NCBI GenBank assembly: GCA_019058015.1
Contig: JAHLWH010000193.1
Location: forward strand, 1 to 28,725
Reading direction: 5' to 3'
DNA from: Promethearchaeota archaeon
Lineage (GTDB): Archaea > Asgardarchaeota > Lokiarchaeia > Sigyniarchaeales > SOKP01
DNA: 28,725 nucleotides
This document shows positions 4,890 through 28,606 of this stretch, one piece after another. A model generated the notes under the pieces. The model did not search any database, had not been told where the DNA came from, and was given only the letters and a program-made list of their open reading frames with translations. Within the stretch, counting starts at the first letter, position 1. Each line of letters opens with the position of its first letter. The position numbers were made by a program, and so were the translations under genes.

Positions 4890-5219
4890 ATGTCTAATGC
4901 TGATGTTATGTTCGATTTTTGTAAAGAAGAATTTAATATAGTCAATGGAAATAAAACTTCTCAAAAGATTTCATTATTTACTTTAAGTACATGCATGTGG
5001 TGTAAGAAAACTAAAAAGTATTTGAATGATAATAATATAAAGTATAGATTTATCGATGTAGATAAAATAGATAAAAACACAAAAAAAGGAATTTTAGATT
5101 GTTTAAGAAAAGCCTATAAAGAAAGAATTGCTTTTCCTTTTTTAATCGTTGACGATCAACCTATCGTTGGTTACGATCCAGAAAAATATAGAAAATTAAT
5201 TAAAAGGGAGGGAGTATGA
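4890..5219 (+). CDS. Glutaredoxin/NrdH-like redoxin
   Basis: TLSTCMWCKK CxxC, cis-Pro loop AFP, IVGYD. One nt separates it from the FTR gene. Confidence 0.9.
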   Translation: MSNADVMFDFCKEEFNIVNGNKTSQKISLFTLSTCMWCKKTKKYLNDNNIKYRFIDVDKIDKNTKKGILDCLRKAYKERIAFPFLIVDDQPIVGYDPEKYRKLIKREGV

Positions 5220-5220
5220 A

Positions 5221-5553
5221 ATGAATTTATCAACTAAAGATGGGATGATTCAATATTGTAAGCAAGTTGCTAAAACCAATAATTGGAATCTTAATAAGGA
5301 TAAAGAGACTTTTAAGGATTTAATAGATGGATTATTATATAATAAATTAAGATATGGATATCAATCTTGTCCATGTAGATTAGCTTCAGGAAAGAGGGAA
5401 TTAGATCGTGATTTAATTTGTCCATGTGATTATGCCCCAGCAGATATAATAGAATATGGGGCATGTTATTGCAATTTATATTTAGCTTCAAATTTTTATG
5501 AAAAGGGTTTGGATTTTGTAAATGTTCCTGAGAGGAGATCAATTGATTTGTAA
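5221..5553 (+). CDS. Ferredoxin:thioredoxin (glutaredoxin) reductase catalytic subunit
   Basis: Three diagnostic motifs CPCR, CPC and CYC, plus the VPERR tail. Confidence 0.92.
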   Translation: MNLSTKDGMIQYCKQVAKTNNWNLNKDKETFKDLIDGLLYNKLRYGYQSCPCRLASGKRELDRDLICPCDYAPADIIEYGACYCNLYLASNFYEKGLDFVNVPERRSIDL

Positions 5554-5714
5554 AGAAAAGCTGAAGAAAATATCTAGAACTAAGAAATTTATAAATTATA
5601 ATAAATTTGTTAAAAATCTTTCTCTATCTACATAACTAGTATAAAATAAATTACAAAAAATAGCCAGTAATAATTAATACATATTGAAATAACATTAATT
5701 TAAGGTGTATTAAA

Positions 5715-6203
5715 TTGGTATTAATCAGTAAAGAAATAAACGAAATAATGAATGCACAGATTATGAAGGAACTGGGATCAGCATATATTTATTTAGGGAT
5801 ATCGACATGGGCTGAGGAAAAATCGCTTCATAATATGGCAAAGTGGTTTAATGCTCAAGCTAAAGAAGAATATACACATGCAGAACGTTTTGTTAATTAT
5901 ATCATAGAAACGGGAGGTCATGTGGAATATCAAACAATAGATGGTGTTAAAACCGATTTTGAAAGCGTAGAGGATTGCATTAAAGCTACAATTGAACATG
6001 AAGAATATATTACAGGAGAAATAAAAAAAATATTAGAAAAGGCAATGGAATTAAAAGAATATGAAGCAATAGAAATGCTTCAATGGTTTATTAAGGAACA
6101 GATCGAAGAAGAGGCTCAATCTAACGAATTGATGACTACATATATTCTTTTTAGAAAAAATGATGCACTTTGGGATCAACATTTACACAGAGATGAGGAA
6201 TAA
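5715..6203 (+). CDS. ftnA: Ferritin (non-heme, FtnA-like)
   Basis: Ferroxidase residues in KELxSxYIY, EEYTHA, EHEEYIT and EQIEEE. TTG start 7 nt after the AGGTG ribosome-binding site. Confidence 0.92.
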   Translation: MVLISKEINEIMNAQIMKELGSAYIYLGISTWAEEKSLHNMAKWFNAQAKEEYTHAERFVNYIIETGGHVEYQTIDGVKTDFESVEDCIKATIEHEEYITGEIKKILEKAMELKEYEAIEMLQWFIKEQIEEEAQSNELMTTYILFRKNDALWDQHLHRDEE

Positions 6204-6341
6204 AAATAAACATATAAAAAATAGCAATATTGTGATTTTAAAAATTGCTTCAATTTTTTTTAATTTTTTTTAACGTTTTATTTATTTTCATTATAATTTT
6301 TTAACAATATATTTTTATTCTCAGTTTTCTCTTTAATTAAC

Positions 6342-6497
6342 ATGAGTTATAAAGAATTAACTGATGAAGAAGTAGAAGAAGAATTAGAAAGAGCTTACAA
6401 ATTAAAAGAAGTTCAAAAGAACCATTGTGGTACTGCCCTTCCATCTAGCAGAGAAACAGGACTTCAAAGAGATAAGGTTAAAATGAAAAAAGATTAA
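6342..6497 (+). CDS. Small hypothetical protein (51 aa)
   Basis: Read by hand: MSYKELTDEEVEEELERAYKLKEVQKNHCGTALPSSRETGLQRDKVKMKKD*. Purine-rich and GAA-rich like neighbouring genes, inside an otherwise T-rich intergenic region. Confidence 0.55.
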   Translation: MSYKELTDEEVEEELERAYKLKEVQKNHCGTALPSSRETGLQRDKVKMKKD

Positions 6498-6720
6498 CTT
6501 GGATTTTATTTGAGATAAAAAGCAAATATAATAATTTCAGATTAATTTTAATAAATTATTAAACATTTAGATGGAAAGGTTCCTATATCTTAAGTCAATG
6601 TTTATTTTTTTTTATAATATAATCTGTAGTTATTTACACTATTGGAAATATTATTATTTAAAAATAAAAATTTCTTAAGAAATATTCAAACACAAATAAA
6701 AAATTAATAGGTTAAGACCA

Positions 6721-7305
6721 ATGAAAAAAACAGTAGAAAATTTAATGGCAGCCTTTATGGGCGAATCTCAAGCAAGAAATAGATATACAATGTTTTCTAA
6801 AATAGCAAAAAAAGAAGGTTATGTACTAATATCAAAAATCTTTAGTGAAACCGCTGACCAAGAGAGAGAGCACGCAACGTGGAATTATAGAATGTTGCAA
6901 AATCTAAAAAAAGAAGAAAGTTTTGATGATTTGGAAGTTCAAGCTGCAGGACCTACAACTTATGGAACGACCGAAGAAAACTTAAAATCTGCAATTGCTG
7001 GAGAAGATTATGAATGGCAAGAAATGTATCCAGGATTTGCAGATGTTGCAGAAAAGGAAGGATATCCTGAAATTGCTACTCGATTGAGATCCATTGCTCG
7101 TGCTGAAAAACATCATTCAGAACGCTATGGTAAGCTTTTAAAACTAGTCGGTGATGATGCATTCTTCAAACGTGGGAAGAAGATTGTTTGGGTATGTATG
7201 GAGTGCGGTTATGAAGTAGAGATGGACGAATTACCAGAAGATTGGAGGTGTCCTGCTTGTGATCATCCAAGAGCATACTACCGAAAAAAATGTGAAGAAT
7301 TTTAA
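6721..7305 (+). CDS. rbr: Rubrerythrin
   Basis: [30 protein letters not shown] diiron ligands. C-terminal rubredoxin-like CMECG...CPAC. Confidence 0.95.
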
Positions 7306-7386
7306 ATTTTTTTAATATTTATAAGAAAATAATTTTTAAAATCAAAATATTCAATAAATAAACATATAAGAAAAGGCGAAAGAATC

Positions 7387-7779
7387 TTGACTCAATTAAA
7401 AGAAATTTATAAATGTGAAGTTTGTGGTAATATTGTTGAAATGCTTCATACTGGAGGTGGTACTCTTGTATGTTGCGGACAAGATATGAAATTAATAGAA
7501 CCAAAAACTGCTGATTATAAAGGAGAAAAACATGTTCCTTATTTAGAAATTGATGGGAATAAAGTGACTGTTTCTATTGGAATTGTTGCAAATATGGCTC
7601 ATCCAATGACTGAAGAACATTGGATTGAATGGATAGAATTAATTTGCAAGGATAATTGCTATAAAAGGAAATTTCTTAAGCCAGGCGATGAACCTAAAGC
7701 AACATTTGTAGTAGCAGATACTGAGGGACTATGGGCTAGAGAATATTGTAATTTACATGGTTTATGGAAATCAAAATAA
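7387..7779 (+). CDS. dfx: Desulfoferrodoxin (2Fe superoxide reductase)
   Basis: Desulforedoxin domain CEVCG...CCG. SOR ligands EKHVP, HPM, HWI, CNLHG. TTG start. Confidence 0.95.
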   Translation: MTQLKEIYKCEVCGNIVEMLHTGGGTLVCCGQDMKLIEPKTADYKGEKHVPYLEIDGNKVTVSIGIVANMAHPMTEEHWIEWIELICKDNCYKRKFLKPGDEPKATFVVADTEGLWAREYCNLHGLWKSK

Positions 7780-11101: not shown

Positions 11102-11548
11102 ATGAAAATAATGCCGGAAGAGATAAAAACAAAAGTAGGTTTAAAATTGGAAAAAGAAATGATATTTAAATGCGACTTGGGTAAAATGGCACTTAAAGAT
11201 TGCTATATTGACGAAACTAATCAACAAGAAGCAGATATGTGGGGTCCAAATCCATCTAGACTTTTAGGAATGGCTCTTTTGGGGTGTTTAAGTGCGAGTT
11301 TTATTTTTTGTTTAAAAAAAAGAAATTTTTCAATTGATGATTTAAAATCAGAAGCCGAAGTAGTAATTGGGAGGAATAATAGAGGGCTTTTAAGGGTAAA
11401 AAAAGTAAATGTCCATATAATCTCTAAAATTGACGATCCTAAAGCCCGTAAGAGGGCAGATCAATGTAGGAAGATGTTTGAGACTTATTGCACTGTTACC
11501 GCAGCTGTTAGGGACGGGATTGAAGTGAATGTAAATCTTGAATATTAA
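11102..11548 (+). CDS. OsmC/Ohr family protein
   Basis: GPNPxxLLxxALxGC and a second Cys in YCTVT. Start may be at 11111. Confidence 0.88.
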   Translation: MKIMPEEIKTKVGLKLEKEMIFKCDLGKMALKDCYIDETNQQEADMWGPNPSRLLGMALLGCLSASFIFCLKKRNFSIDDLKSEAEVVIGRNNRGLLRVKKVNVHIISKIDDPKARKRADQCRKMFETYCTVTAAVRDGIEVNVNLEY

Positions 11549-11675
11549 TTTTTTTAATTAAATATTTTATTTGTTTTTCTTTTGTTATGGTTTTTTTTTT
11601 TTGTTTAACTCAAGTACAATCTTATTTATTATTAAACAAACATTTAAATATGTAAGCTTACACTTTTTAAATAAT

Positions 11676-11700
11676 GGTTGTCAATCACAGTTTGACAACC
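11676..11700. promoter_or_regulatory. Perfect inverted repeat GGTTGTCAA-N7-TTGACAACC (putative heat-shock repressor operator) just downstream of a TATA-like TTTAAATA
   Basis: Seen directly. Ends 50 nt upstream of the dnaK ATG at 11751 and is comparatively GC-rich in an AT-rich intergenic region. Confidence 0.65.
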
Positions 11701-11750
11701 AAAAATTAACAGACTTTATAAAAATTAAAACTAAAAAAGAGGAAAATAAC

Positions 11751-13631
11751 ATGGGAAAAATAATTGGAATTGACTTGGGAACTTCTAATTCTGCAGCTGC
11801 TGTACTAATTGGGGGAAAGCCCACATTAATTCCGAGCGCTGAAGGACTCACTATTGGAGGTAAAGCTTTTCCTAGTGTAGTTGCCTTCACGAAAGATGGA
11901 CAACGATTAGTAGGAGAACCTGCTCGTAGACAAGCTATTTCTAATCCAGATAGAACCATAACTGCCATTAAACGAAAAATGGGTATGAGTTATAAGGTTA
12001 AAATCGATGGAAAAGATTATTCTCCGCAAGAAATTTCAGCAATGATCTTAAGTAAAATAAAGGAAGATGCGAGTGCCTTTTTAGGAGAAGAAGTAAGTGA
12101 AGCTATTATTACGGTTCCTGCATATTTTAACGATAATCAAAGGCAAGCCACAAAAGACGCCGGTAAAATTGCTGGATTAAACGTAAGAAGATTAATTAAC
12201 GAACCTACTGCTGCTGCCGTATCTTATGGTTTAGATAAGGAAGATATCTGTATTAAAATTGCTGTTCTTGATTTAGGAGGAGGTACATTTGATGTCACTA
12301 TTCTCGAAATGGAAAATAAAGTATTTGAAGTCATTTCCACAGCTGGAGATACTCAATTGGGAGGAACTGACATGGATAGAATTTTAGTAGATTATATTGC
12401 TACAGAATTTCAAAAGGAACAAGGAATTGATGTGAGAAAAGATTCTAAAGCAATGGAAAGGATTAGAGACGCAGCAGAAAAAGGAAAAATTGAGTTATCC
12501 ACGACGCTAACAACTGAAATAAATCTGCCTTACATTACTGCGGATGCAAATGGACCTAAACATTTAAACATGTCCTTAACCAGAGCCAAACTTGAGAGTT
12601 TAATTAGCCCAATTTTAAAAAAATTAGAGATATCTATTAAAAGGGCGTTAAGCGATGCAAACTTACAGTCTTCAAGTATAGATAAGATTCTGTTAGTAGG
12701 AGGGCCTACAAGAATGCCTAGCGTTCAAAAAAAGTTCCAAGAACTTTTTGGAAAGCCTCCAGAACATGGTATTGATCCGATGGAATGTGTTGCTCTGGGT
12801 GCTTCAATACAAGGTGGAATTTTATCTGGTGAAGTTAAGGATTTATTACTCTTAGATGTCACGCCACTCTCTTTGGGTGTCGAAACATTGGGAGGAGTAT
12901 TTACTAAATTAATTGAAAGAAATACGACAATTCCTACGAGAAAAACTGAAGTATTTTCGACAGCGTCAGACAATCAACCTGCAGTTGAAATTCATGTACT
13001 TCAAGGTGAAAGACCAATGGCTGCTGATAATATTACTTTAGGGACATTTCATTTAACTGGGATACCACCAGCTCTGAGAGGGGTGCCACAAATAGAGGTG
13101 ACATTTGACATCGATGAAAATGGCATTTTAAATGTAACAGCAAAAGACAAGGGTACTGGAAAACAAACTGGAATTACTATTACTGCTTCTACAAAGATGT
13201 CTGAATCAGAAATAAATGCAAAAATCAGAGAAGCCGAGAAATATGCTGAGGAAGATAAGAAAACCAAAGAATTAATGTCTTTAAAAAACCAAGCGGAATC
13301 TCTAATATATCAAACCGAGAAAATTATGAAAGAACACGAAGATAAAATCGGGGACTTAAAAACAACTATTGAACAAAAAGTTTTAGCGTTGAAGGGAGCT
13401 TATGAAGGAGAAGATCCTTCAAGGATTAAAAACGCAATGGAAGATTTACAAACTGCTTTACATCAAGTTTCAGCGAGGATTTATAGTCAAAATCAGACTT
13501 ATAAAGGTTATCCTGGTGGTTCATGCGGAATACCGCAAGATGATAGACCAGAATATGAAAAACAAGCTGAACAATATCGAAAAGCTTCTGGACAAGACGA
13601 TATAGTAGATACAGATTATGAAGCAGCCTAA
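11751..13631 (+). CDS. dnaK: Chaperone DnaK (Hsp70), 626 aa
   Basis: [11 protein letters not shown] after a GAGG ribosome-binding site, [24 protein letters not shown], linker [16 protein letters not shown]. Lacks the diderm N-terminal insert and carries the [15 protein letters not shown] insert. The ORF-track start at 11571 is too far upstream. Confidence 0.97.
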
Positions 13632-13640
13632 AATAAAAAT

Positions 13641-13671
13641 ATTTGTTTTTTTTTTAATATTTTTTTTTTTT
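13641..13671 (+). terminator. Oligo-T tracts after dnaK (possible archaeal intrinsic terminator or attenuator before dnaJ)
   Basis: Two runs of 10 or more T right after the dnaK stop. Similar T-tracts follow rbr, dfx, osmC and iscU. Confidence 0.4.
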
Positions 13672-13699
13672 AAAATTAAGAGATGTGCTGGGGTGAATA

Positions 13700-14707
13700 A
13701 TGCTGCCAAAGAAAAATTATTATAAAATTTTAGGAATAGATAAAAGCGCTACTAAGGAAGAAATAAAACGCGCTTTCCGAAAAATGGCAAGAAAATATCA
13801 CCCTGATGTAAATCCAGACGAACCAAAATCTGGAGAAAAATTTAAAGAAATTAATGAAGCTTATAGCATCTTGAACGATGATAAAAAGAGGGAGATGTAC
13901 GATAAATTTGGAGTAGTAGATGGTGATCGCTCAACATATTATCAATCTACCCCTGGTAGTAGTCGTTCAAATTTTAATAGAACTCCTGACGGAACTTATG
14001 TATATACTAGCTCCGGAAATCCTAGAGATTTTAGCGAATTTTTCAAAAGTATGGGAAGTTCGGGGAGATTCTCAGGATCTAATTTCGATTTCTTTAATGA
14101 TTTAGGAGATATATTTGATGTTTTTTCAAATAAAAGAAGTGGTAGTACAAGAACAAGGGTAAGACCAAATATCCCTCGAGAAGGTGAGGATTTGAGATAT
14201 GATATGGAAGTTAATTTTATGGAAGCATTTTATGGGGGTACTAGAAAGGTTCAATATATAGATCCTGCTACTAATAAAAAAACTACCCTATCAATAAAAA
14301 TTCCTAGAGGAGTACATGATAATCAGAAATTAAGACTTAAAGGTAAAGGTATGCCGGGAGAATATGGTGGTCCAAATGGCGACCTTTATATAGTAATTCA
14401 CATTGAGAATCATACAATTTTTGAAAGAAGAACCAATGATCTCTATATCGAAAAAGAAATACCCTTCTCAGTTGCAACATTAGGGGGAAAAATTAAAGTT
14501 CCTAAAATCGATGGGGGCACTTTAAATGTAAATATTCCTTCAAGAACTCAACATTATGCCACTCTTAGATTAAAAAATCAAGGATTTTATAAATTGAATT
14601 CAGATCAAAGAGGTGATTTATTGGTGAAAGTAAAAATTAATGTTCCCAAAAAATTAACGGGAGAACAGAAAGAATTATTATTAAAATTAAAAAATTTAGG
14701 GTTATAA
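13700..14707 (+). CDS. dnaJ: Class B J-domain protein (DnaJ/CbpA-like, no zinc finger)
   Basis: J domain with HPD, G/F-rich region with DIFD, C-terminal domains (GEDL, LKGKG...GDLY, RGDL), no CxxCxGxG repeats. GGTGA ribosome-binding site. Confidence 0.9.
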
Positions 14708-16247: not shown

Positions 16248-16564
16248 AATCGCATTGATTTAAAAGAATAATATTAAATAACTAAGAATATCATACATTT
16301 AAGACTTTATCTTAAAAAGTTATAAATTAACAAATCTCGAATTTGATAGATATTAATCATCATTTTGCTTGAAATTTATATATTATAAAATTCATTCCTA
16401 AAGTATTTATTGTAGTATTTCAAAATACAAATATTTTCATTAAAAAATAATAAGAATATTTAAGTTTCTTCTGGTTATAATTTATTTAAGGATTAGAATT
16501 TATTAATAAATCCTTTCTAATTTGGAATTTAAATATTTTAAATTTGCATTAGGAGTCTCGTAAA

Positions 16565-16816
16565 ATGAAAAGTGAAGAAAATAAAGAAATTGACGAAGAA
16601 TTAGATACAAGAGGATTGTATTGTCCTGAACCCTTATTTGAAGTTAGAAATTTATACGAAACACTTGAAGATGGTCAAAGTTTCAAAGTTATAGCAGATG
16701 ATCCTGCCGCTGATGAAGATTTGCATAGGTGGGCAAAAAGGACTGGTGCCGAGATCTTAGATTTTAGAAAGGAGGATAATGATTTAATATTTGTCTTTAA
16801 AAAACCAATAAAATAA
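16565..16816 (+). CDS. tusA: TusA/SirA family sulfur carrier
   Basis: LDTRGLYCPEP (CPxP persulfide Cys) and ADDPAA..D...W. Confidence 0.92.
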   Translation: MKSEENKEIDEELDTRGLYCPEPLFEVRNLYETLEDGQSFKVIADDPAADEDLHRWAKRTGAEILDFRKEDNDLIFVFKKPIK

Positions 16817-16829
16817 TGGAGGGAAAGAA

Positions 16830-17192
16830 ATGAGTGAGAAAAAGTTTATATTATATGTTCAAACCAGCGACAATCCTGAAAAACAATATTCTCCATTAGT
16901 TTTAGCTCAAACGGCTAAGGCTATGGATATTGATGCAAAAGTATATTATTTAGGTACAGGATTACGAATACTAAAGCCTGGAGAAGCGGATAGAATAAAA
17001 CTAGGAGAATTCCCATCTGTGAAAGAAATGCTAGACAAGACTCTTGAAGCTGGTGTTGAGATTTTAGTTTGTGAAGCTTCAAAAAGAATGTTAGGATTGG
17101 ATAAAGTTGAATTAATATCAGGAACAAAAATTGTTGGAGCTGCTACTCTAAACGATTTAGTTTTAGAAGCAGATGCTACTATGTGGTTTTAA
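16830..17192 (+). CDS. DsrE/DsrF-like sulfur relay protein
   Basis: 120 aa, with LA.TAKAM, YYLGTG, conserved Cys in GVEILVCEAS, and VGAATL. Confidence 0.85.
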   Translation: MSEKKFILYVQTSDNPEKQYSPLVLAQTAKAMDIDAKVYYLGTGLRILKPGEADRIKLGEFPSVKEMLDKTLEAGVEILVCEASKRMLGLDKVELISGTKIVGAATLNDLVLEADATMWF

Positions 17193-17252
17193 CGTTTAAA
17201 AAATACAAATTAAATTATTTTCAAAAATCAAAGTGGAGGAAAAATTGATAAA

Positions 17253-18446
17253 ATGAGTGTATATTTAGATTATCAAGCAGCTAAACCAGTTGATCCAAGG
17301 GTTCTATCTGCAATGAGACCATATTATAATAAAATTTTTGCAAATCCCGCATCTCTACATTTTGATGGAGATGATGCTACCAATGCCTTAAAAGAATCGC
17401 GTCAAAAAATTGCGGATTTCATTAATGCTCCAAGTCCAGATAGTATAATATTTACATCTAGTGCAACGGAAGCCAGTAATTTAGGACTAATTGGTGCGGC
17501 TTTAAATAGAAAAAGAAAGGGAAATCATATTATAATTTCTGAGATTGAGCATATTTCGATATTAAATATTGGAAAATACTTAGAAAGACAAGGTTTTGAA
17601 GTTTCAAGGGTTGGTGTTGATAAATTTGGTGTCATCAATATAGAAAAATTAAAACGTTTAATTAGAGAGAATACAATTCTAATTTCAATTACCTCTGCTA
17701 GTAATGAAGTAGGATCTCTCCAACCCATAGCGGAGATTAGCGAGATAGCACAAGAAAAAGGTATTTTGTTTCACACAGATGCTGTAGCAATTGAAAATGT
17801 TATTCCTATTGATGTGCAAAATGTTCCGGTAGATTTAATGACTTTTTCTTCAAACGATATTTATGGACCTCGGGGTGTTGGTGCGTTATACTTAAAAAAA
17901 GGAGTGAAAGTGAATCCTATTATTATAGGAGGTGGTCAAGAAAGAGGTATGAGATCAGGCTCCGAAAATATGCAAGATATTGTGGGATTTGGTAAAGCAG
18001 CTGAAATTATGAAACTAGAAATAAATCAAGAGGCAAACCGTTTGAAAGGTTTTAAAGATAAGCTCATTTCGGAGGTTTTATCGTCAATACCTAAATCTTA
18101 TTTAAATGGCCATCCCGACAAAAGGCTTCCCAGTAATGCTCATTTTAGATTTGAATATATTGAAGGTGAATCATTAATCTTATCATTAAGAGATCAAAAT
18201 GTATCTGCAGCAACAGGGTCTGCTTGCAGTTCTAAAACTTTAGAGCCATCCCACACACTTATCGCAATGGGATTACTACATGAAGAAGCTCACGGTAGTT
18301 TACTTATCTCAATGGGTCGATACACAAAAGAATCCGATATTGATAAAGTTGTAGAAGTATTACCTGATATTGTTAAAAAATTAAGAATTTTATCTCCGTT
18401 AACTCCTCCTGATTTATTAAAAAAATATAATGAGGTAAAAAAATAA
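17253..18446 (+). CDS. iscS: IscS/NifS-like cysteine desulfurase homolog with the catalytic Lys replaced by Asp
   Basis: YLD, NPAS, EH, HTDA, GGGQERG.RSG and TGSACSS (Cys325). SSNDIYGP replaces SxHKxYGP, and SLLIS replaces SLRFS. Confidence 0.92.
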   Translation: MSVYLDYQAAKPVDPRVLSAMRPYYNKIFANPASLHFDGDDATNALKESRQKIADFINAPSPDSIIFTSSATEASNLGLIGAALNRKRKGNHIIISEIEHISILNIGKYLERQGFEVSRVGVDKFGVINIEKLKRLIRENTILISITSASNEVGSLQPIAEISEIAQEKGILFHTDAVAIENVIPIDVQNVPVDLMTFSSNDIYGPRGVGALYLKKGVKVNPIIIGGGQERGMRSGSENMQDIVGFGKAAEIMKLEINQEANRLKGFKDKLISEVLSSIPKSYLNGHPDKRLPSNAHFRFEYIEGESLILSLRDQNVSAATGSACSSKTLEPSHTLIAMGLLHEEAHGSLLISMGRYTKESDIDKVVEVLPDIVKKLRILSPLTPPDLLKKYNEVKK

Positions 18447-18447
18447 T

Positions 18448-19242
18448 ATGAAATCAACAACATATTCTGAAAAAGTATTAGATCACTTTAGAAACCCAAG
18501 AAATATGGGAGAAATAGAAACTCCAGACGGTATGGGAAAAGTTGGAAATCCAGTATGCGGAGATCTTATGTGGATTTATATCAAGGTCGGTAAAAACGAA
18601 AAAGGCGAGGAAATAATAGAAGATATTAAGTTTAAAACATTTGGTTGTGGTTCTGCTGTGGCGACTTCTTCTATGATTACTGAAATGGCCAAGGGAAAAA
18701 CGCTTAACGAAGCGTATAAAATAACGAGATCTGATGTGGCAGAAGAACTCGATGGATTACCTCCGATTAAAATGCATTGTTCTAATTTGGCAGCTGATGC
18801 GCTTCAAGCAGCAATTCGTAATTATAGAGACGGTGCAAATCCAGAAGTTGATGTAATTACTGCTTGCCAATTAGAAGAAAAAAATATCATAGGTTTTAAT
18901 GAGTTTCTTGGTAAGGGAACTTATAAGAAAGCAGATAATTTATCAGAATTTAATGATGAAAGAGTGTTAATTGTAGATAACGGAGACAATTCATTAAAAC
19001 TCGCATTAGAATTAACAAAACATACTGGAAGAGTTGTAGTAGTCACTTACAGTAAAGCTACTCCTGGTAATGCAGAAATACAAGAAAAATTAAAAATATC
19101 TGATGTAAAAATTATATACCAATCTGAGCTTCTAGAAATAAATGGATTTGACGATGTAGAAAAGGTTATCATACACGATTTCGATGAAGATAATAATTAC
19201 GAGTTATTTGTGGATAAAGTAATATTACTTGAAGATAAATGA
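18448..19242 (+). CDS. iscU: IscU/NifU-type Fe-S scaffold fused to a degenerate thioredoxin-reductase NADPH-binding-like domain
   Basis: YSEKVLDHF.NPRN, GNPVCGD, FGCGSA, LPPIKMHCS. About 120 extra C-terminal residues (EFLGKG...RVLIVDNGDNSLKLALEL...EINGFDDVEKV...ELFVDKVIL). Confidence 0.9.
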   Translation: MKSTTYSEKVLDHFRNPRNMGEIETPDGMGKVGNPVCGDLMWIYIKVGKNEKGEEIIEDIKFKTFGCGSAVATSSMITEMAKGKTLNEAYKITRSDVAEELDGLPPIKMHCSNLAADALQAAIRNYRDGANPEVDVITACQLEEKNIIGFNEFLGKGTYKKADNLSEFNDERVLIVDNGDNSLKLALELTKHTGRVVVVTYSKATPGNAEIQEKLKISDVKIIYQSELLEINGFDDVEKVIIHDFDEDNNYELFVDKVILLEDK

Positions 19243-19361
19243 AATTATTTTTTTTTCATTTTTTTTATGAATTCCTAAAAATACATTCAATTCTCTTGAG
19301 AAACTTAAGTCTATTATTGTAAATAAACCATCAATTATTTCGATTATAATAAAGTTTTCTT

Positions 19362-20543
19362 TTAATTTTCAATTTCAAAAAAAATCTTCAAATGTGAATA
19401 TTTAGAATTAAGAAGATTTAGTACTTTTTCAGTAAAAGCTCTAAGATTTTTTGAATGTTGAAATCTAAAATCTCTTTGCTCTATTAAATAATCATGAATC
19501 ATTTTCCGAGTATTATCATGACCATGAGACGAAAGAAATTCAATCCAATGAATTGATATTCTACATATTCTCTCTAATTCGTTATCTGGATATTCAGAGT
19601 TATCAAGCATCATATAATGATATTTATTTATCGATTTTGCAACCCTTTCTAAGTGATCAGCAATTCCTAACGAATATCGACAAAGAGTTATCAAATTCGA
19701 AGTTGTTCGTGTATTTCTTGTATTAACGGCCTCCTCAAATGCAATCCAAGCATTAAGCCACTCTTCTTCTCTAAGCCTCTCTCCGCAATGTTTATAATCG
19801 CATCCATTAACTATGGCTACATTTATTAAATCACTAAGGTCAACATCATGACCTCTTTTTATTTTTTTGCTAAAAATTTCCTTTAGGCTTGTACCTTCAA
19901 GATAAGCTCCTGACCCGAAATCCAATAATAAGTTTATATCATTTGCTGCAATAAGCTTATTTGCTTCCCTTTCATTTCTAATAAGATTGACCCACTGAAT
20001 TTGTTTTTCCCATTCTTTTGTATCTGATATCCTTTTCCAACCATTTTCTTTTAACACGTGCTCATATAAATCCATTTTGAAAATCCAGAAGTCAATATCA
20101 TCAGTAAATCTTTTTCTTCTCCAATCTCTCGTAGCATATTTGCCTAAATATAATTTTAAAGTCCCTCTAACCAATGCATATTTACCATTTTCTAATGTTT
20201 TACGCGCATCTTCATAAAATTTATCGTTAGGGTCATTAGCGATTTCTACTATTTTATTTAAAATTATTCTTGTTTCCTTAGCAACTATATCACAAGGTAT
20301 GCTTCCATCGGATGGATAGTGCCTTGAACCTCCGTTTAAAAATTTCTCGAATAATTCAATATTATCATCAGGGATGACATACCACGGATTATTAAATAAA
20401 ACTTTACTGAATACATAATGCGTGAAACCGTTTTCATCCTTTCCTGTTTTGCCAGTTAAAGGCGAAACATCTCTATTATTATCTCCTCTTTTCACAACAT
20501 CGGATTTAACATCCCAAATACCATTCATAACTTTTAATTCCAT
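19362..20543 (-). CDS. Hypothetical protein with a putative nucleotidyltransferase (AbiEii/Pol-beta-like) motif
   Basis: [10 protein letters not shown]...RFTDDIDFW (RxTxDxD) and [13 protein letters not shown]. Overlaps the yyaL stop. Start could be 20528. Confidence 0.6.
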
Positions 20544-25987: not shown

Positions 25988-27388
25988 TCATAATTTTACA
26001 AACTTATCTTTTGAAACTCCACATACTGGACAATGCCAATCATCTGGAATTTCTTTAAATGGAGTTCCTGGAGAGATTCCACTATCTGGATCACCTTTTA
26101 CAGGATCATAAATATATCCACACACTGTACATCTATATTTTCCTCCCAGTTCCTCACTAGTTTTTAATGAAATTGGCGAAATTTCAACTTCTTCTTCTCT
26201 TTCTGCCTCAATTTTTGGGAGTTCAAATAAATTGGGCATTCTATGTTTATATTGTTTCATCACAAATCTTGAAATGATTATTCTTTGGATTTCTGAGGTG
26301 CCTTCGTAAATTTGAAATAGTTTTGCATCTCTGAATAACTTTTCTAATGGGTATGTTTTAATATAACCGTAACCTCCCATTATTTGAATAGCTTCAGTAG
26401 CTACTTGCATAGCAACATCCGAGGCAAAAGCTTTTGCACATGCTGCACTTAATGTATTATCTAACCCTTGATCTGTCTCCCATGCTGATTTATGGGTTAA
26501 TAATCGACTAGCTTCAATATTTTTATACATTTCTGCAATTTTAAACTGAATAGCTTGATAATTTGCTATTGACCTTCCGAAAGTCTCTCTTTTTTTTGCA
26601 TAATCAATCACATATTCCATAGCGGACCTTGCTAAACCAGTAGCAAAACCTCCTATAGCTGGACGAGTATGAGCAAATGTTTGCATTGCTAAAACAAAAC
26701 CTCTCCCTGGAGGAGCTAATACATTTTCTTTTGGAATTCTCAAATTTTTTAAAACCACCGAAGTAGTATTTGATGCTCTATGCCCCAATTTAGGAATTGG
26801 TTTTCCTATTTTAACTCCCTCTAAATCAGTTGGTACAATAAAAGCACATATTCCTTTATGTTTTTTTGCTGGATCCACTGTTGCAAATAGAGAAATATAT
26901 TTTGCATAACCTGCATTGGTAATCCAATACTTTGTACCATTTAAAATATAATCTTCTCCATCTTTTTGAGCTCGACAATTAATTCCAGCAACATCAGAAC
27001 CCATTTCAGGTTCAGAGGTGGCAAAAGAAATTAAAGTAAATTTTTTTACTAATTCTCCTAATATTCTATCTTTCTGTTCTTCATTACCTCCTAAAATTAT
27101 TGGCTCTGCTCCCAAATTATTTGCGAATATGGATGTTGCGAATCCGGGACAAGCCGCAGCAATTTCCTCAACAACTACTACAGATTCTAAAAGACCATAA
27201 CCAGGTCCCCCATATTTTTTTGGAATTACTAAATTCACTAAACCTGCCTTATAAGCTTTCTCAATAATTTCAATTGGAAATTTCCCATGTTCATCGTAAC
27301 TAGCTGCTACTGGCAAGATTTCCTTAATTGCAAATTCCTGTGCTTTTTTTTGCAATTCTTTTTGAGTGTCTGTTAAATGAAAATCCAT
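25988..27388 (-). CDS. Acyl-CoA dehydrogenase with a C-terminal rubredoxin domain
   Basis: [34 protein letters not shown] and catalytic IYEGT. The last 50 aa form a full rubredoxin ([10 protein letters not shown]...W.CPVCG). Confidence 0.93.
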
Positions 27389-27400
27389 ATCTTAAAACCT

Positions 27401-28606
27401 TTATACCATTTTCTCAATTAGTTTATCGATAATTTTTTTGAAGTTAAGATCTTCGGGCTTTGGAACAAATTTAATTTCTATACTTTCTTCTAAAATATCG
27501 ATTTTAGAAGCTTCTAACTCTTTAATAATTTCTTTCACAGCTCCACCACCCCATCCATACGAACCAAAGGCTAGTCCTATCTTATTCATTGGCTTTAAAC
27601 CTTTCTGATAACACACATATTCTGCCACTGTTGGATACATTCCATTATTTAAAGTTGGACTTCCTATAATAATTGCTTTTGAAAGCATAGCTTCTGTTAT
27701 TACGTCAGAATAGTCTGCGTTAGTTAATTTATATCGTTTCACTTTTATCCCTCTATATTGCAATTCCTTGTATAGGGCTTTTGCGATAATTTCGGTGCTT
27801 CCCCACATTGTATCATATACAATTATTGCTGTTTTATTATCAATTTCTCCTGCTGACCACTTTTTATACCTTTCAACGATATCTCCTACATGTTTCCTCC
27901 AACAAACTCCATGCGAAGGGCAAATAATTTCTATTGGCAAAGAACCTACTTTGGGTAAAACATTTGAGATCAGTTTCGATAAATGAAGTAAAATATTTGC
28001 ATAATATTTAACCGCTTCTTCCATTATTACGTCAAAATCATTCTCATCATCCCAACGTGAGGAAGTGGCGAAATGTTGTCCAAAAGCATCATTTGAAAAT
28101 AAAATATTTTTACCATTTTCGTCTGTCATAAATGATACCATTGAATCAGGCCAATGGATCATTGGGATTGGAACAAATGTAATTTTTTTACCGTTACCAA
28201 TATCTAAAGTATCTCCTTCTTTCACAGCTCGAATATTATTGAATACTTCATCATTAACTTCTTTATGAAAATGATCTCTTAAAATTTCAACACCCTTTTT
28301 AGAAGCGATAATTTTAGCGTTTGGAAGATATTTAATGATTAATGGAAATGAGCGAGAATGGTCCATTTCAACATGGTTCATGATAAGGTAATCAATTTTA
28401 TCCAAATTAATACCGCTCTTTATATTCTCCAAGAAATAATTAAAAAAAGGACGTTTAACCGTATCTATCAAAACATTTTTTTCTCCTTTTACCAAATAAG
28501 CATTATATGATGACCCCCTGTGTGTAGAATATCCGTGAAAATTTCTTACCTCCCAATCTACATAACCTACGTAATAAATATCCTTCATTAATTCAGTTTG
28601 AATCAT
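27401..28606 (-). CDS. fprA: Flavodiiron protein (FprA/ROO, class A)
   Basis: SYNAYL, diiron ligands NHVEMDH, HWPD, NDAFG and PSHG. Flavodoxin domain YDTMWGST, GSPT, FGSYGW. Confidence 0.95.
   Translation of the reverse strand: MIQTELMKDIYYVGYVDWEVRNFHGYSTHRGSSYNAYLVKGEKNVLIDTVKRPFFNYFLENIKSGINLDKIDYLIMNHVEMDHSRSFPLIIKYLPNAKIIASKKGVEILRDHFHKEVNDEVFNNIRAVKEGDTLDIGNGKKITFVPIPMIHWPDSMVSFMTDENGKNILFSNDAFGQHFATSSRWDDENDFDVIMEEAVKYYANILLHLSKLISNVLPKVGSLPIEIICPSHGVCWRKHVGDIVERYKKWSAGEIDNKTAIIVYDTMWGSTEIIAKALYKELQYRGIKVKRYKLTNADYSDVITEAMLSKAIIIGSPTLNNGMYPTVAEYVCYQKGLKPMNKIGLAFGSYGWGGGAVKEIIKELEASKIDILEESIEIKFVPKPEDLNFKKIIDKLIEKMV

Follow-up and report, generated by a model that had tools for sequence, protein, structure and literature searches.

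A lysine-less IscS–IscU pair associated with the sulfur carriers TusA and DsrE in Asgard archaea: a candidate route to iron–sulfur clusters

Introduction

A 28,725-nucleotide contig of a Promethearchaeota archaeon (Asgardarchaeota, Lokiarchaeia; GenBank JAHLWH010000193.1, assembly GCA_019058015.1) – referred to below, as a whole, as the window – carries four co-oriented plus-strand open reading frames (ORFs) for TusA, DsrE, an IscS homologue without the catalytic lysine and an IscU scaffold extended by a second domain. The same association of the two sulfur carriers with lysine-less IscS recurs across Asgard genomes and on metagenome contigs, and is missing directly upstream of canonical IscS. 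We propose that the four genes form one module that would build [2Fe-2S] clusters on a dead IscS–IscU pair from carrier-borne sulfane sulfur, a reading to which we give about an even chance of being right.

A dead IscS has already been published. For its link to carriers, in keeping with what the first-pass annotation of this DNA had supposed, a search of the open-access literature found no description of the tusA-dsrE-iscS-iscU arrangement.

TusA and DsrE next to lysine-less IscS

Two sets of Asgard loci were compared – 60 around the best IscS matches and 69 around canonical or divergent IscS copies – along with 80 metagenome contigs retrieved with an alignment of Asp-type IscS. (A contig scan with the window IscS protein as the single query returned 6 close relatives only.) TusA and DsrE were scored by profiles built from the first locus set. 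The count excludes five duplicate loci (L098, L101, L104, L105 and L106) and IscS ORFs shorter than 330 aa, and a locus is called assessable if it has at least 800 nt of upstream sequence.

This survey of SSND-type against HK-type neighbourhoods, which the first-pass annotation had put forward as a check, comes out strongly on the side of a carrier link (Table 1). For Asn-Asp IscS, the TusA counts refer to a gene on the same strand and directly upstream.

Table 1. Carrier genes upstream of IscS, by residues at the His-Lys and Arg positions
IscS class	Source	Loci	Assessable	TusA upstream	DsrE upstream
Asn-Asp	Asgard genomes	61	59	54	43
Asn-Asp	Metagenome contigs	16	12	12	7
Canonical HK with Arg	Asgard genomes	34	34	0	0
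Canonical HK with Arg	Metagenome contigs	57	47	0	0
HK without Arg	Asgard genomes	10	10	0	0
Other non-HK	Asgard genomes	20	19	3	3

The three TusA-positive loci in the last row all belong to one small-genome lineage and read SANS at the site. The metagenome contigs range in GC content from 0.38 to 0.72, and the gene order is kept across 0.30–0.72. An arrangement that turns up again in many Asgard genomes and on metagenome contigs unrelated to them lies far beyond chance, and the conserved neighbourhood speaks for TusA and DsrE being functionally coupled to the predicted dead IscS–IscU pair.

IscU, too, belongs to the conserved core, adjoining Asp-type IscS in 54 of 61 Asgard loci. When the ORFs around 81 lysine-less loci were clustered, IscS appeared at 79, IscU at 66, TusA at 57 and DsrE at 51, with the next family at only 15. 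Further accessory genes were considered as parts of the module and rejected, as only these four families are widely common around the 81 loci. The lesser neighbours include a peptidase, a GNAT protein, an alcohol dehydrogenase and a PP-loop ATPase (8 loci). The last of these (tRNA_Me_trans, QueC, ATP_bind_3; L049:7297-8118, minus strand, and 7 similar loci, all in one Asgard family) is encoded on the strand of the cassette, some 2.9 kb upstream, and is a possible thiolation enzyme neighbour.

Two variations on the cassette were also seen. At L062 and L063, in the closed genomes G023 and G012, the gene after tusA-dsrE-iscS(Asp) codes for another class-V aminotransferase instead of IscU; this second enzyme is the best PF00266 match in G012 (5e-120). 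At L021–L025, in several genomes of one and the same family, a same-strand protein of 689–797 aa, encoded about 2.1–2.6 kb downstream of iscS, contains a weak TusA-like stretch (about 1e-4).

The altered site of IscS

The window IscS aligns over its full length with IscS2 of Archaeoglobus fulgidus (PDB 4eb5; E 5e-134), and SSNDIYGP, translated from bases 17847–17870, matches residue for residue. Asn201 and Asp202 (codon 17856–17858) occupy the canonical His-Lys position (SSND against SxHK), where the 4r5f structure reads SSNK. In the canonical desulfurase 9wep, 'fsahkmygp' aligns with SSND, and the Arg of 'gsvrfs' with Leu351 of the window protein; the corresponding residue of Escherichia coli IscS, Arg354, is the one that we take to bind the substrate carboxylate. 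The mobile-loop Cys325 (codon 18225–18227) is kept in TGSACSS, and GSAC or SSAC is found in 61 of 61 sequences. The residue assignments made at first pass – Asp for Lys, Leu for Arg, a retained loop Cys – are thus borne out. TIGR03402 (NCBIfam) matches the protein at 2e-135, yet below its cut-off. With Lys, His and Arg all lost, the window IscS is predicted to be non-catalytic.

Asn201, Asp202, Cys325, His100 and Asp176 are invariant in 18 diverse orthologues whose mean column identity is 57%, which argues that the altered site is under selection and not decaying. Taken with the invariant residues of the carriers and of the IscU ligand set described below, these positions point to purifying selection.

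The A. fulgidus protein is described in section 10 of PMC8918507 as having Asp199 at this place, with pyridoxamine phosphate bound and no desulfurase activity, so that it may only donate a Cys ligand; the same section leaves the sulfur source of the A. fulgidus IscS–IscU pair open, with sulfide as a hypothesis. The account of this protein in the first-pass annotation agrees with that section. IscS1 of Methanosarcina acetivorans likewise lacks the lysine, according to PMC7585200.

The two carriers

The window TusA has the CPEP motif with its carrier cysteine, Cys20, which is present in 55 of 55 orthologues; Cys20 and Pro21 are both invariant. Among solved structures, E. coli TusA (1dcj/3lvj, 2e-7) comes nearest to it. 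The DsrE protein is of the DsrE3-like kind, with a single cysteine, Cys81, in VCEAS, kept in 43 of 43 orthologues; its nearest solved structure is 3mc3 (3.5e-12), in which VCVQS aligns with VCEAS, Cys to Cys81. The two proteins are the sole PF01206 and PF02635 matches, respectively, in the 94%-complete genome, and therefore appear dedicated to the module.

In PMC11094781, 3MC3 (SSO1125) is termed a trimeric DsrE3A, and DsrE3 relatives are described as homotrimers that bind persulfide or thiosulfonate. The same source reports that bacterial TusA and DsrE3 take up sulfane sulfur from polysulfide and hand it on in vitro. A complex prediction of IscS and the IscU fusion with TusA as partner gave a score of 0.00; controls were not run, and the result speaks neither for nor against binding.

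IscU and its C-terminal domain

The IscU part of the fusion has the marks of an IscU scaffold. It matches 7c8m (2.6e-54) and 4eb5_C (3e-49), and scores 195 bits against the cut-off of 187.9 for TIGR03419 (NCBIfam). The ligands Cys37, Asp39, Cys67, His110 and Cys111 are invariant in 39 sequences, and the ligand set is kept in 46 of 46. At L060 (4722–6302, plus strand; genome G058) the orthologue is split by an intein (Pfam Intein_splicing, LAGLIDADG_3) that contains a LAGLIDADG homing endonuclease and sits immediately before the first cluster-ligand Cys (NPVC / intein / CGDLMW).

The extension, found fused to IscU in 47 of 61 Asgard Asn-Asp loci, was called a thioredoxin reductase (TrxR) domain at first pass, and the sequence match to that family is weak (NCBIfam TrxR, 4e-9, residues 146–258). 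An AlphaFold2 (AF2) model of the fusion from a 39-sequence alignment (predicted local distance difference test score, pLDDT, 87) has two domains joined by a disordered linker at residues 133–144. In Foldseek comparisons, the N-terminal domain of the model matches IscU structures, and residues from about 145 to 264 match the NAD(P)H domains of TrxR and of TrxR-like ferredoxin-NADP reductases (2zbw_B, 3f8d, 2q7v and 3lzw; 116–124 columns, root-mean-square deviation 1.6–2.2, 21–26% identity), 2zbw_B being matched at 7e-11 (121 columns, deviation 1.9).

The fold of the name has thus stood, and the function has not. Against 2zbw, DNGDNS replaces GGGDSA and TYS replaces HRR; the consensus reads [H/D/Y]-x-G-D-x-S at the GxGxxA site and T-x-x at the HRR site, and all 46 fusions have H, D, Y, F or E instead of the first Gly of GxGxxA. 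There is no conserved Cys, no CxxC and no FAD domain, as the protein ends after the central domain. Compared with TrxR and TrxR-like ferredoxin-NADP reductase, only the NAD(P)H-domain fold is left, and the domain was rejected as an active reductase: GxGxxA, HRR, CxxC and the FAD domain are all gone, leaving a degenerate relic.

The origin of this relic emerges from relatives. L056 (5410–6753, plus strand) encodes a 448-aa fusion of IscU with a complete Pyr_redox_2 flavoprotein, and the same kind of fusion occurs at L055 (4–482, minus strand); both genomes, G038 and G047, are labelled Jordarchaeia. Eleven clusters of 447–453 aa carry IscU and flavoprotein domains, one of them labelled Jordarchaeaceae by a source. 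Like the window gene, the Jordarchaeial fusions at L055 and L056 stand in a locus with TusA and Asp-type IscS; unlike the window protein, the Jordarchaeial protein keeps the FAD domain (GGGPAG) and the GxGxxA motif (GNGDQA). The IscU domains of the window protein and of the 448-aa fusion share 69% identity. The window C-domain is closer to the NAD(P)H domain of this fusion (36% identity, E 4e-16) than to any solved TrxR, which makes the Lokiarchaeal domain what is left of a reductase once fused to the scaffold. In NCBI records only the flavoprotein part is annotated, as a protein of 326 aa, so that the start may be set wrongly in some of them; the 326-aa entry for the L056 query's own gene is labelled Freyarchaeum.

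Inheritance of the arrangement and other IscS variants

In a midpoint-rooted FastTree tree of 208 IscS sequences, 77 Asn-Asp and 3 SANS proteins, the window gene included, form one clade (80 tips, support 0.995), within which the TusA arrangement is kept across about 50% sequence divergence. Outside it, two separate lysine-less groups have TusA downstream, with or without DsrE. The first comprises L161, L163 and L174 with TusA and their kin L167 and L199 without; the second, L126 and L213, falls within a 7-tip clade that also contains the canonical locus L135.

Other departures from the canonical site were noted in further Asgard families, at L110–L127 and L138–L146, where SSYK, SSNR, DSSK, SSQK, PSDK, DAHR, DAHV, DAHH and DASP variants occur at the His-Lys/Arg positions; each of these loci has an IscU of 163–211 aa and no TusA nearby, and several of the enzymes are predicted to be inactive. 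At L130, L131 and L132 (G027, G069 and G103), a canonical HK IscS (AGHKLYAP, AGAACHA) lies in ORFs of 742–777 aa, which are probably fusions of IscS with another domain.

Operon layout and setting in the genome

The four genes are separated by intergenic gaps of 13, 60 and 1 nt; both these gaps and the Pfam families of the ORFs agree with the gene calls made at first pass (Table 2). Ribosome-binding-like motifs, T-runs after iscU and flanking genes on the opposite strand make the four genes look like one operon. Upstream, a 317-nt AT-rich intergenic region (16248–16564) separates tusA from a divergent CitMHS transporter gene (Pfam). Archaeal RNA polymerase terminates at oligo-T, and by this rule the T-runs 3' of iscU are a likely terminator closing the four-gene unit; no long T-run is present in the 60-nt dsrE–iscS spacer on reading of its sequence. 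Directly 3' of the operon, a 393-aa ORF on the minus strand (19362–20543) has no Pfam match.

Table 2. Features of the four-gene unit in the window
Feature	Position	Strand	Length and evidence
AGGAG, Shine-Dalgarno-like motif	16551-16555	+	9 nt 5' of tusA start
tusA	16565-16816	+	83 aa; PF01206 3e-20, 72.1 bits vs cut-off 28.6 (Pfam)
dsrE	16830-17192	+	120 aa; PF02635 3e-16, 60 bits vs cut-off 22.7 (Pfam)
GGAGG, ribosome-binding motif	17235-17239	+	Within the dsrE–iscS spacer
iscS without Lys	17253-18446	+	397 aa; PF00266 Aminotran_5 3e-73 (Pfam)
iscU fusion ORF	18448-19242	+	264 aa; NifU_N 2e-47, residues 5-128 (Pfam)
IscU scaffold domain	18448-18840	+	About residues 1-131; NifU_N, 7c8m/4eb5_C matches, IscU fold
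Degenerate TrxR/ferredoxin-NADP reductase-type NAD(P)H-binding domain	18880-19239	+	Residues 145-264; AF2 model, Foldseek, 2zbw alignment
Two T-runs (T9, CAT, T7), likely archaeal terminator	19248-19266	+	Begin 6 nt past iscU stop

Expression was looked for in three libraries. RNA library X19 contains a contig inside iscS (17515–17783, 0 differences) and another inside iscU (18459–18609, 1 difference), a weak sign of expression; library X20 is probably DNA, its pieces being mostly of other organisms, and library X24 yielded no contig here. Neither an Rfam nor a tRNA scan turned up any RNA gene in the window.

The window is AT-rich (GC content about 0.30) and comes from an Asgard genome of 3.84 Mb; its close relatives are labelled Promethearchaeota or Lokiarchaeota. 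Elsewhere in this same genome, on contig C242, lie genes for a canonical IscS (SASAHKLYGP, GSLRIT) and a plain 124-aa IscU, and a SufB-like gene 3 kb from this pair. In five other Asgard genomes there are 4–6 class-V enzymes each, with HK in at least 4 of 9 further loci inspected. The description 'cysteine-independent', applied to the system at first pass, therefore fails, and the idea of the module as the cell's only, or a cysteine-free, route to iron–sulfur (Fe–S) clusters was rejected on the strength of the canonical IscS–IscU pair, the SufB-like gene and the HK enzymes of relatives.

The rest of the window is rich in redox and iron proteins: ferritin, rubrerythrin, desulfoferrodoxin, OsmC, DnaK, DnaJ, a DUF255 thioredoxin-domain protein, a nitroreductase and a flavodiiron protein. 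Upstream of the operon, an island at 4890–7779 and 11102–14707 holds a glutaredoxin-like protein and a ferredoxin-thioredoxin-reductase catalytic chain, ferritin, rubrerythrin and desulfoferrodoxin, then OsmC, DnaK and DnaJ. Downstream, on the minus strand, an acyl-CoA dehydrogenase with a C-terminally fused rubredoxin (25988–27388) adjoins a flavodiiron-type protein (27401–28606; ODP beta-lactamase fold with flavodoxin).

Relation to known systems

The closest solved relative is the A. fulgidus IscS2–IscU pair (PDB 4eb5, 4eb7 and 4hvk; D199K variant 4r5f), which has the identical SSNDIYGP, the loop Cys, Leu at the Arg position and an adjacent IscU partner. Unlike the A. fulgidus pair as published, the window pair is preceded by tusA and dsrE, and its IscU carries the extra relic reductase domain.

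The MIS system (MisS–MisU) also has a two-gene core of IscS-like and IscU-like proteins, in an anaerobic archaeon and in an operon without HscAB, IscA or Fdx. According to PMC13066941, MIS works with a cysteine desulfurase and no additional components. The window module shares with it the adjacent IscS-like and IscU-like genes, and differs in its predicted dead desulfurase, in TusA and DsrE as fixed partners and in a scaffold with a second domain; measured by the definition in that source, an active desulfurase without accessories, it does not belong to MIS.

In E. coli, sulfur is relayed from IscS to TusA and on to TusBCD. As in that relay, TusA and a DsrE/TusD-family protein are found here with an IscS homologue, and the carrier cysteines align. 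Unlike it, the window unit includes IscU, and flow would run toward IscS–IscU. TusB, TusC and TusE partners were not seen either, on the basis of a PF02635 search of the 94%-complete genome that gave one match and did not extend to the DsrH and DsrC families. The TusA–DsrE3 cascades of sulfur oxidisers (sHdr), as described in PMC11094781, likewise pair a small TusA with a DsrE3-like single-Cys protein; by contrast, the neighbourhood conserved here is without hdr, lbpA or dsr genes, and the partner is an Fe–S scaffold, not an oxidising complex.

A possible mechanism and its alternatives

Under the proposed reading, the non-catalytic IscS would serve as a structural partner of IscU and as cysteine donor to it. 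Sulfane sulfur would be brought by TusA (on Cys20) and, in most lineages, by the DsrE3-like protein (on Cys81), and would probably be passed to Cys325 of IscS, to IscU or to both. The carriers may receive their sulfur from an active cysteine desulfurase outside the module – the genome does have a canonical HK IscS – or from inorganic sulfane sulfur such as environmental polysulfide or thiosulfate. The ancestral scaffold, with a whole NAD(P)H flavoreductase attached, would have reduced persulfide sulfur (S0) to sulfide; the fused reductase of relatives fits sulfur that arrives as S0. The sequences themselves establish what the genes are, which catalytic residues are gone, how specific and conserved the linkage is, that the carrier cysteines do not vary and that the extra domain is a relic; that the proteins bind one another, that sulfur passes between them and which way, where it comes from and what supplies the electrons are steps that we infer.

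Several observations weigh against this proposal. TusA is not adjacent at 5 of 59 assessable Asp-type loci (L057, L059, L060, L061 and L068), although the genomes concerned encode it elsewhere, and DsrE is not upstream at 16 of the 59 in Asgard genomes, so DsrE is not essential to the module. The association is also not wholly exclusive: both carrier genes lie downstream at L135, a canonical HK locus, and on the opposite strand at the canonical locus L133. As most of the evidence comes from the one 80-tip clade, the TusA association is largely one inherited arrangement; and in a 21-tip group of Asgard IscS without the Arg, about half of which also lack His-Lys, there is no TusA nearby, showing that loss of catalysis does not always bring a carrier. 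The C-domain encoded in this genome is without every redox motif, so the argument about electron supply rests on relatives only. No contig of the RNA library spans any gene junction, the two X19 contigs being short. Finally, PMC13015791 reports that sulfide alone can feed IscU in E. coli without IscS; carriers are thus not chemically required.

This last point leads to the strongest alternative, in which the dead IscS–IscU pair uses free sulfide directly, and TusA and DsrE act beside it, buffering or detoxifying sulfane sulfur or carrying sulfur away. Sulfide is the hypothesised source for the A. fulgidus pair (PMC8918507, section 10); the rescue by H2S of E. coli lacking iscS proceeds via IscU (PMC13015791), and MIS and SMS systems can use sulfide, according to the legend of Fig. 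3 in PMC13066941. The DNA sequencing runs place the window in habitats of the sediment type, which are rich in sulfide, and the dispensability of DsrE would also fit. Direct use of sulfide would, however, leave the specificity of TusA unexplained – 54/59 and 12/12 for lysine-less IscS against 0/81 for canonical IscS – and would not account for the fusion of a complete NAD(P)H flavoreductase in relatives, since sulfide needs no reduction. We consider it unlikely, if ahead of the other alternatives.

The module could instead be a hub of sulfur trafficking for thio-cofactors or tRNA thiolation, analogous to the Tus relay, with the IscS–IscU cluster serving thiolation. TusA and a DsrE/TusD-family protein beside IscS do resemble that relay; PMC13066941 has TusA accepting sulfur from IscS for 2-thiouridine (s2U) and the molybdenum cofactor (Moco). 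In 8 loci, a PP-loop ATPase gene precedes the cassette on its own strand, and housekeeping Fe–S assembly is already provided for by the canonical pair and the SufB-like gene. Yet the window IscS is predicted to be unable to make persulfide, which would make the E. coli direction of flow unavailable; the single PF02635 match argues against a TusBCD-like heterohexamer being encoded; IscU, with all its cluster ligands, belongs to the conserved core (66/81 loci); and the PP-loop neighbour is lineage-specific. Such a hub is improbable.

A little less probable still is a system for times of stress – oxidative or sulfide stress – or for repair, with the canonical IscS–IscU and SufBC-like proteins doing the routine work. 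The setting of the operon, among genes for ferritin, rubrerythrin, desulfoferrodoxin, OsmC, DnaK–DnaJ, DUF255, nitroreductase and flavodiiron proteins, invites this reading, as does the coexistence of three Fe–S systems in the genome. These stress-type neighbours are not conserved around the cassette, however, the next family after the core four reaching only 15 of 81 loci; and many genomes have a single match to a canonical IscS query, lying, among the matches listed, at the Asp-type locus, so that the cassette may hold the only IscS-type gene of many genomes.

Decay of the lysine-less IscS as a pseudo-enzyme, in a gene order kept by historical accident and without joint function, is very improbable: the catalytic Lys, His and Arg and the motifs of the extra IscU domain have indeed been lost, but Asn201, Asp202, Cys325, His100 and Asp176 are invariant in the 18 orthologues, which share about 50% identity overall, reading frames are intact at the examined loci, the order is kept over the whole GC range, and in A. 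fulgidus a defined IscS–IscU complex exists (4eb5).

Implications

Beyond the module itself, we tentatively suggest – with somewhat less confidence than we have in the module – a distinct Fe–S route in which persulfide sulfur of TusA and DsrE would enter a dead IscS–IscU pair, originally with a fused NAD(P)H flavoreductase, and which would be widespread in Asgard archaea and other anaerobes. If true, this would answer how IscS–IscU pairs of the A. fulgidus type obtain their sulfur, a question open since the structures of 2012–2015 and still listed as unresolved in reviews (PMC8918507). The conserved and specific link to two persulfide carriers offers a concrete candidate answer, and the reductase fusion hints at a former source of electrons.

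The lineage matters as well. Among archaea, the Asgard group stands closest to eukaryotes, and homologues of IscS and IscU work in the mitochondrial ISC machinery of the latter.

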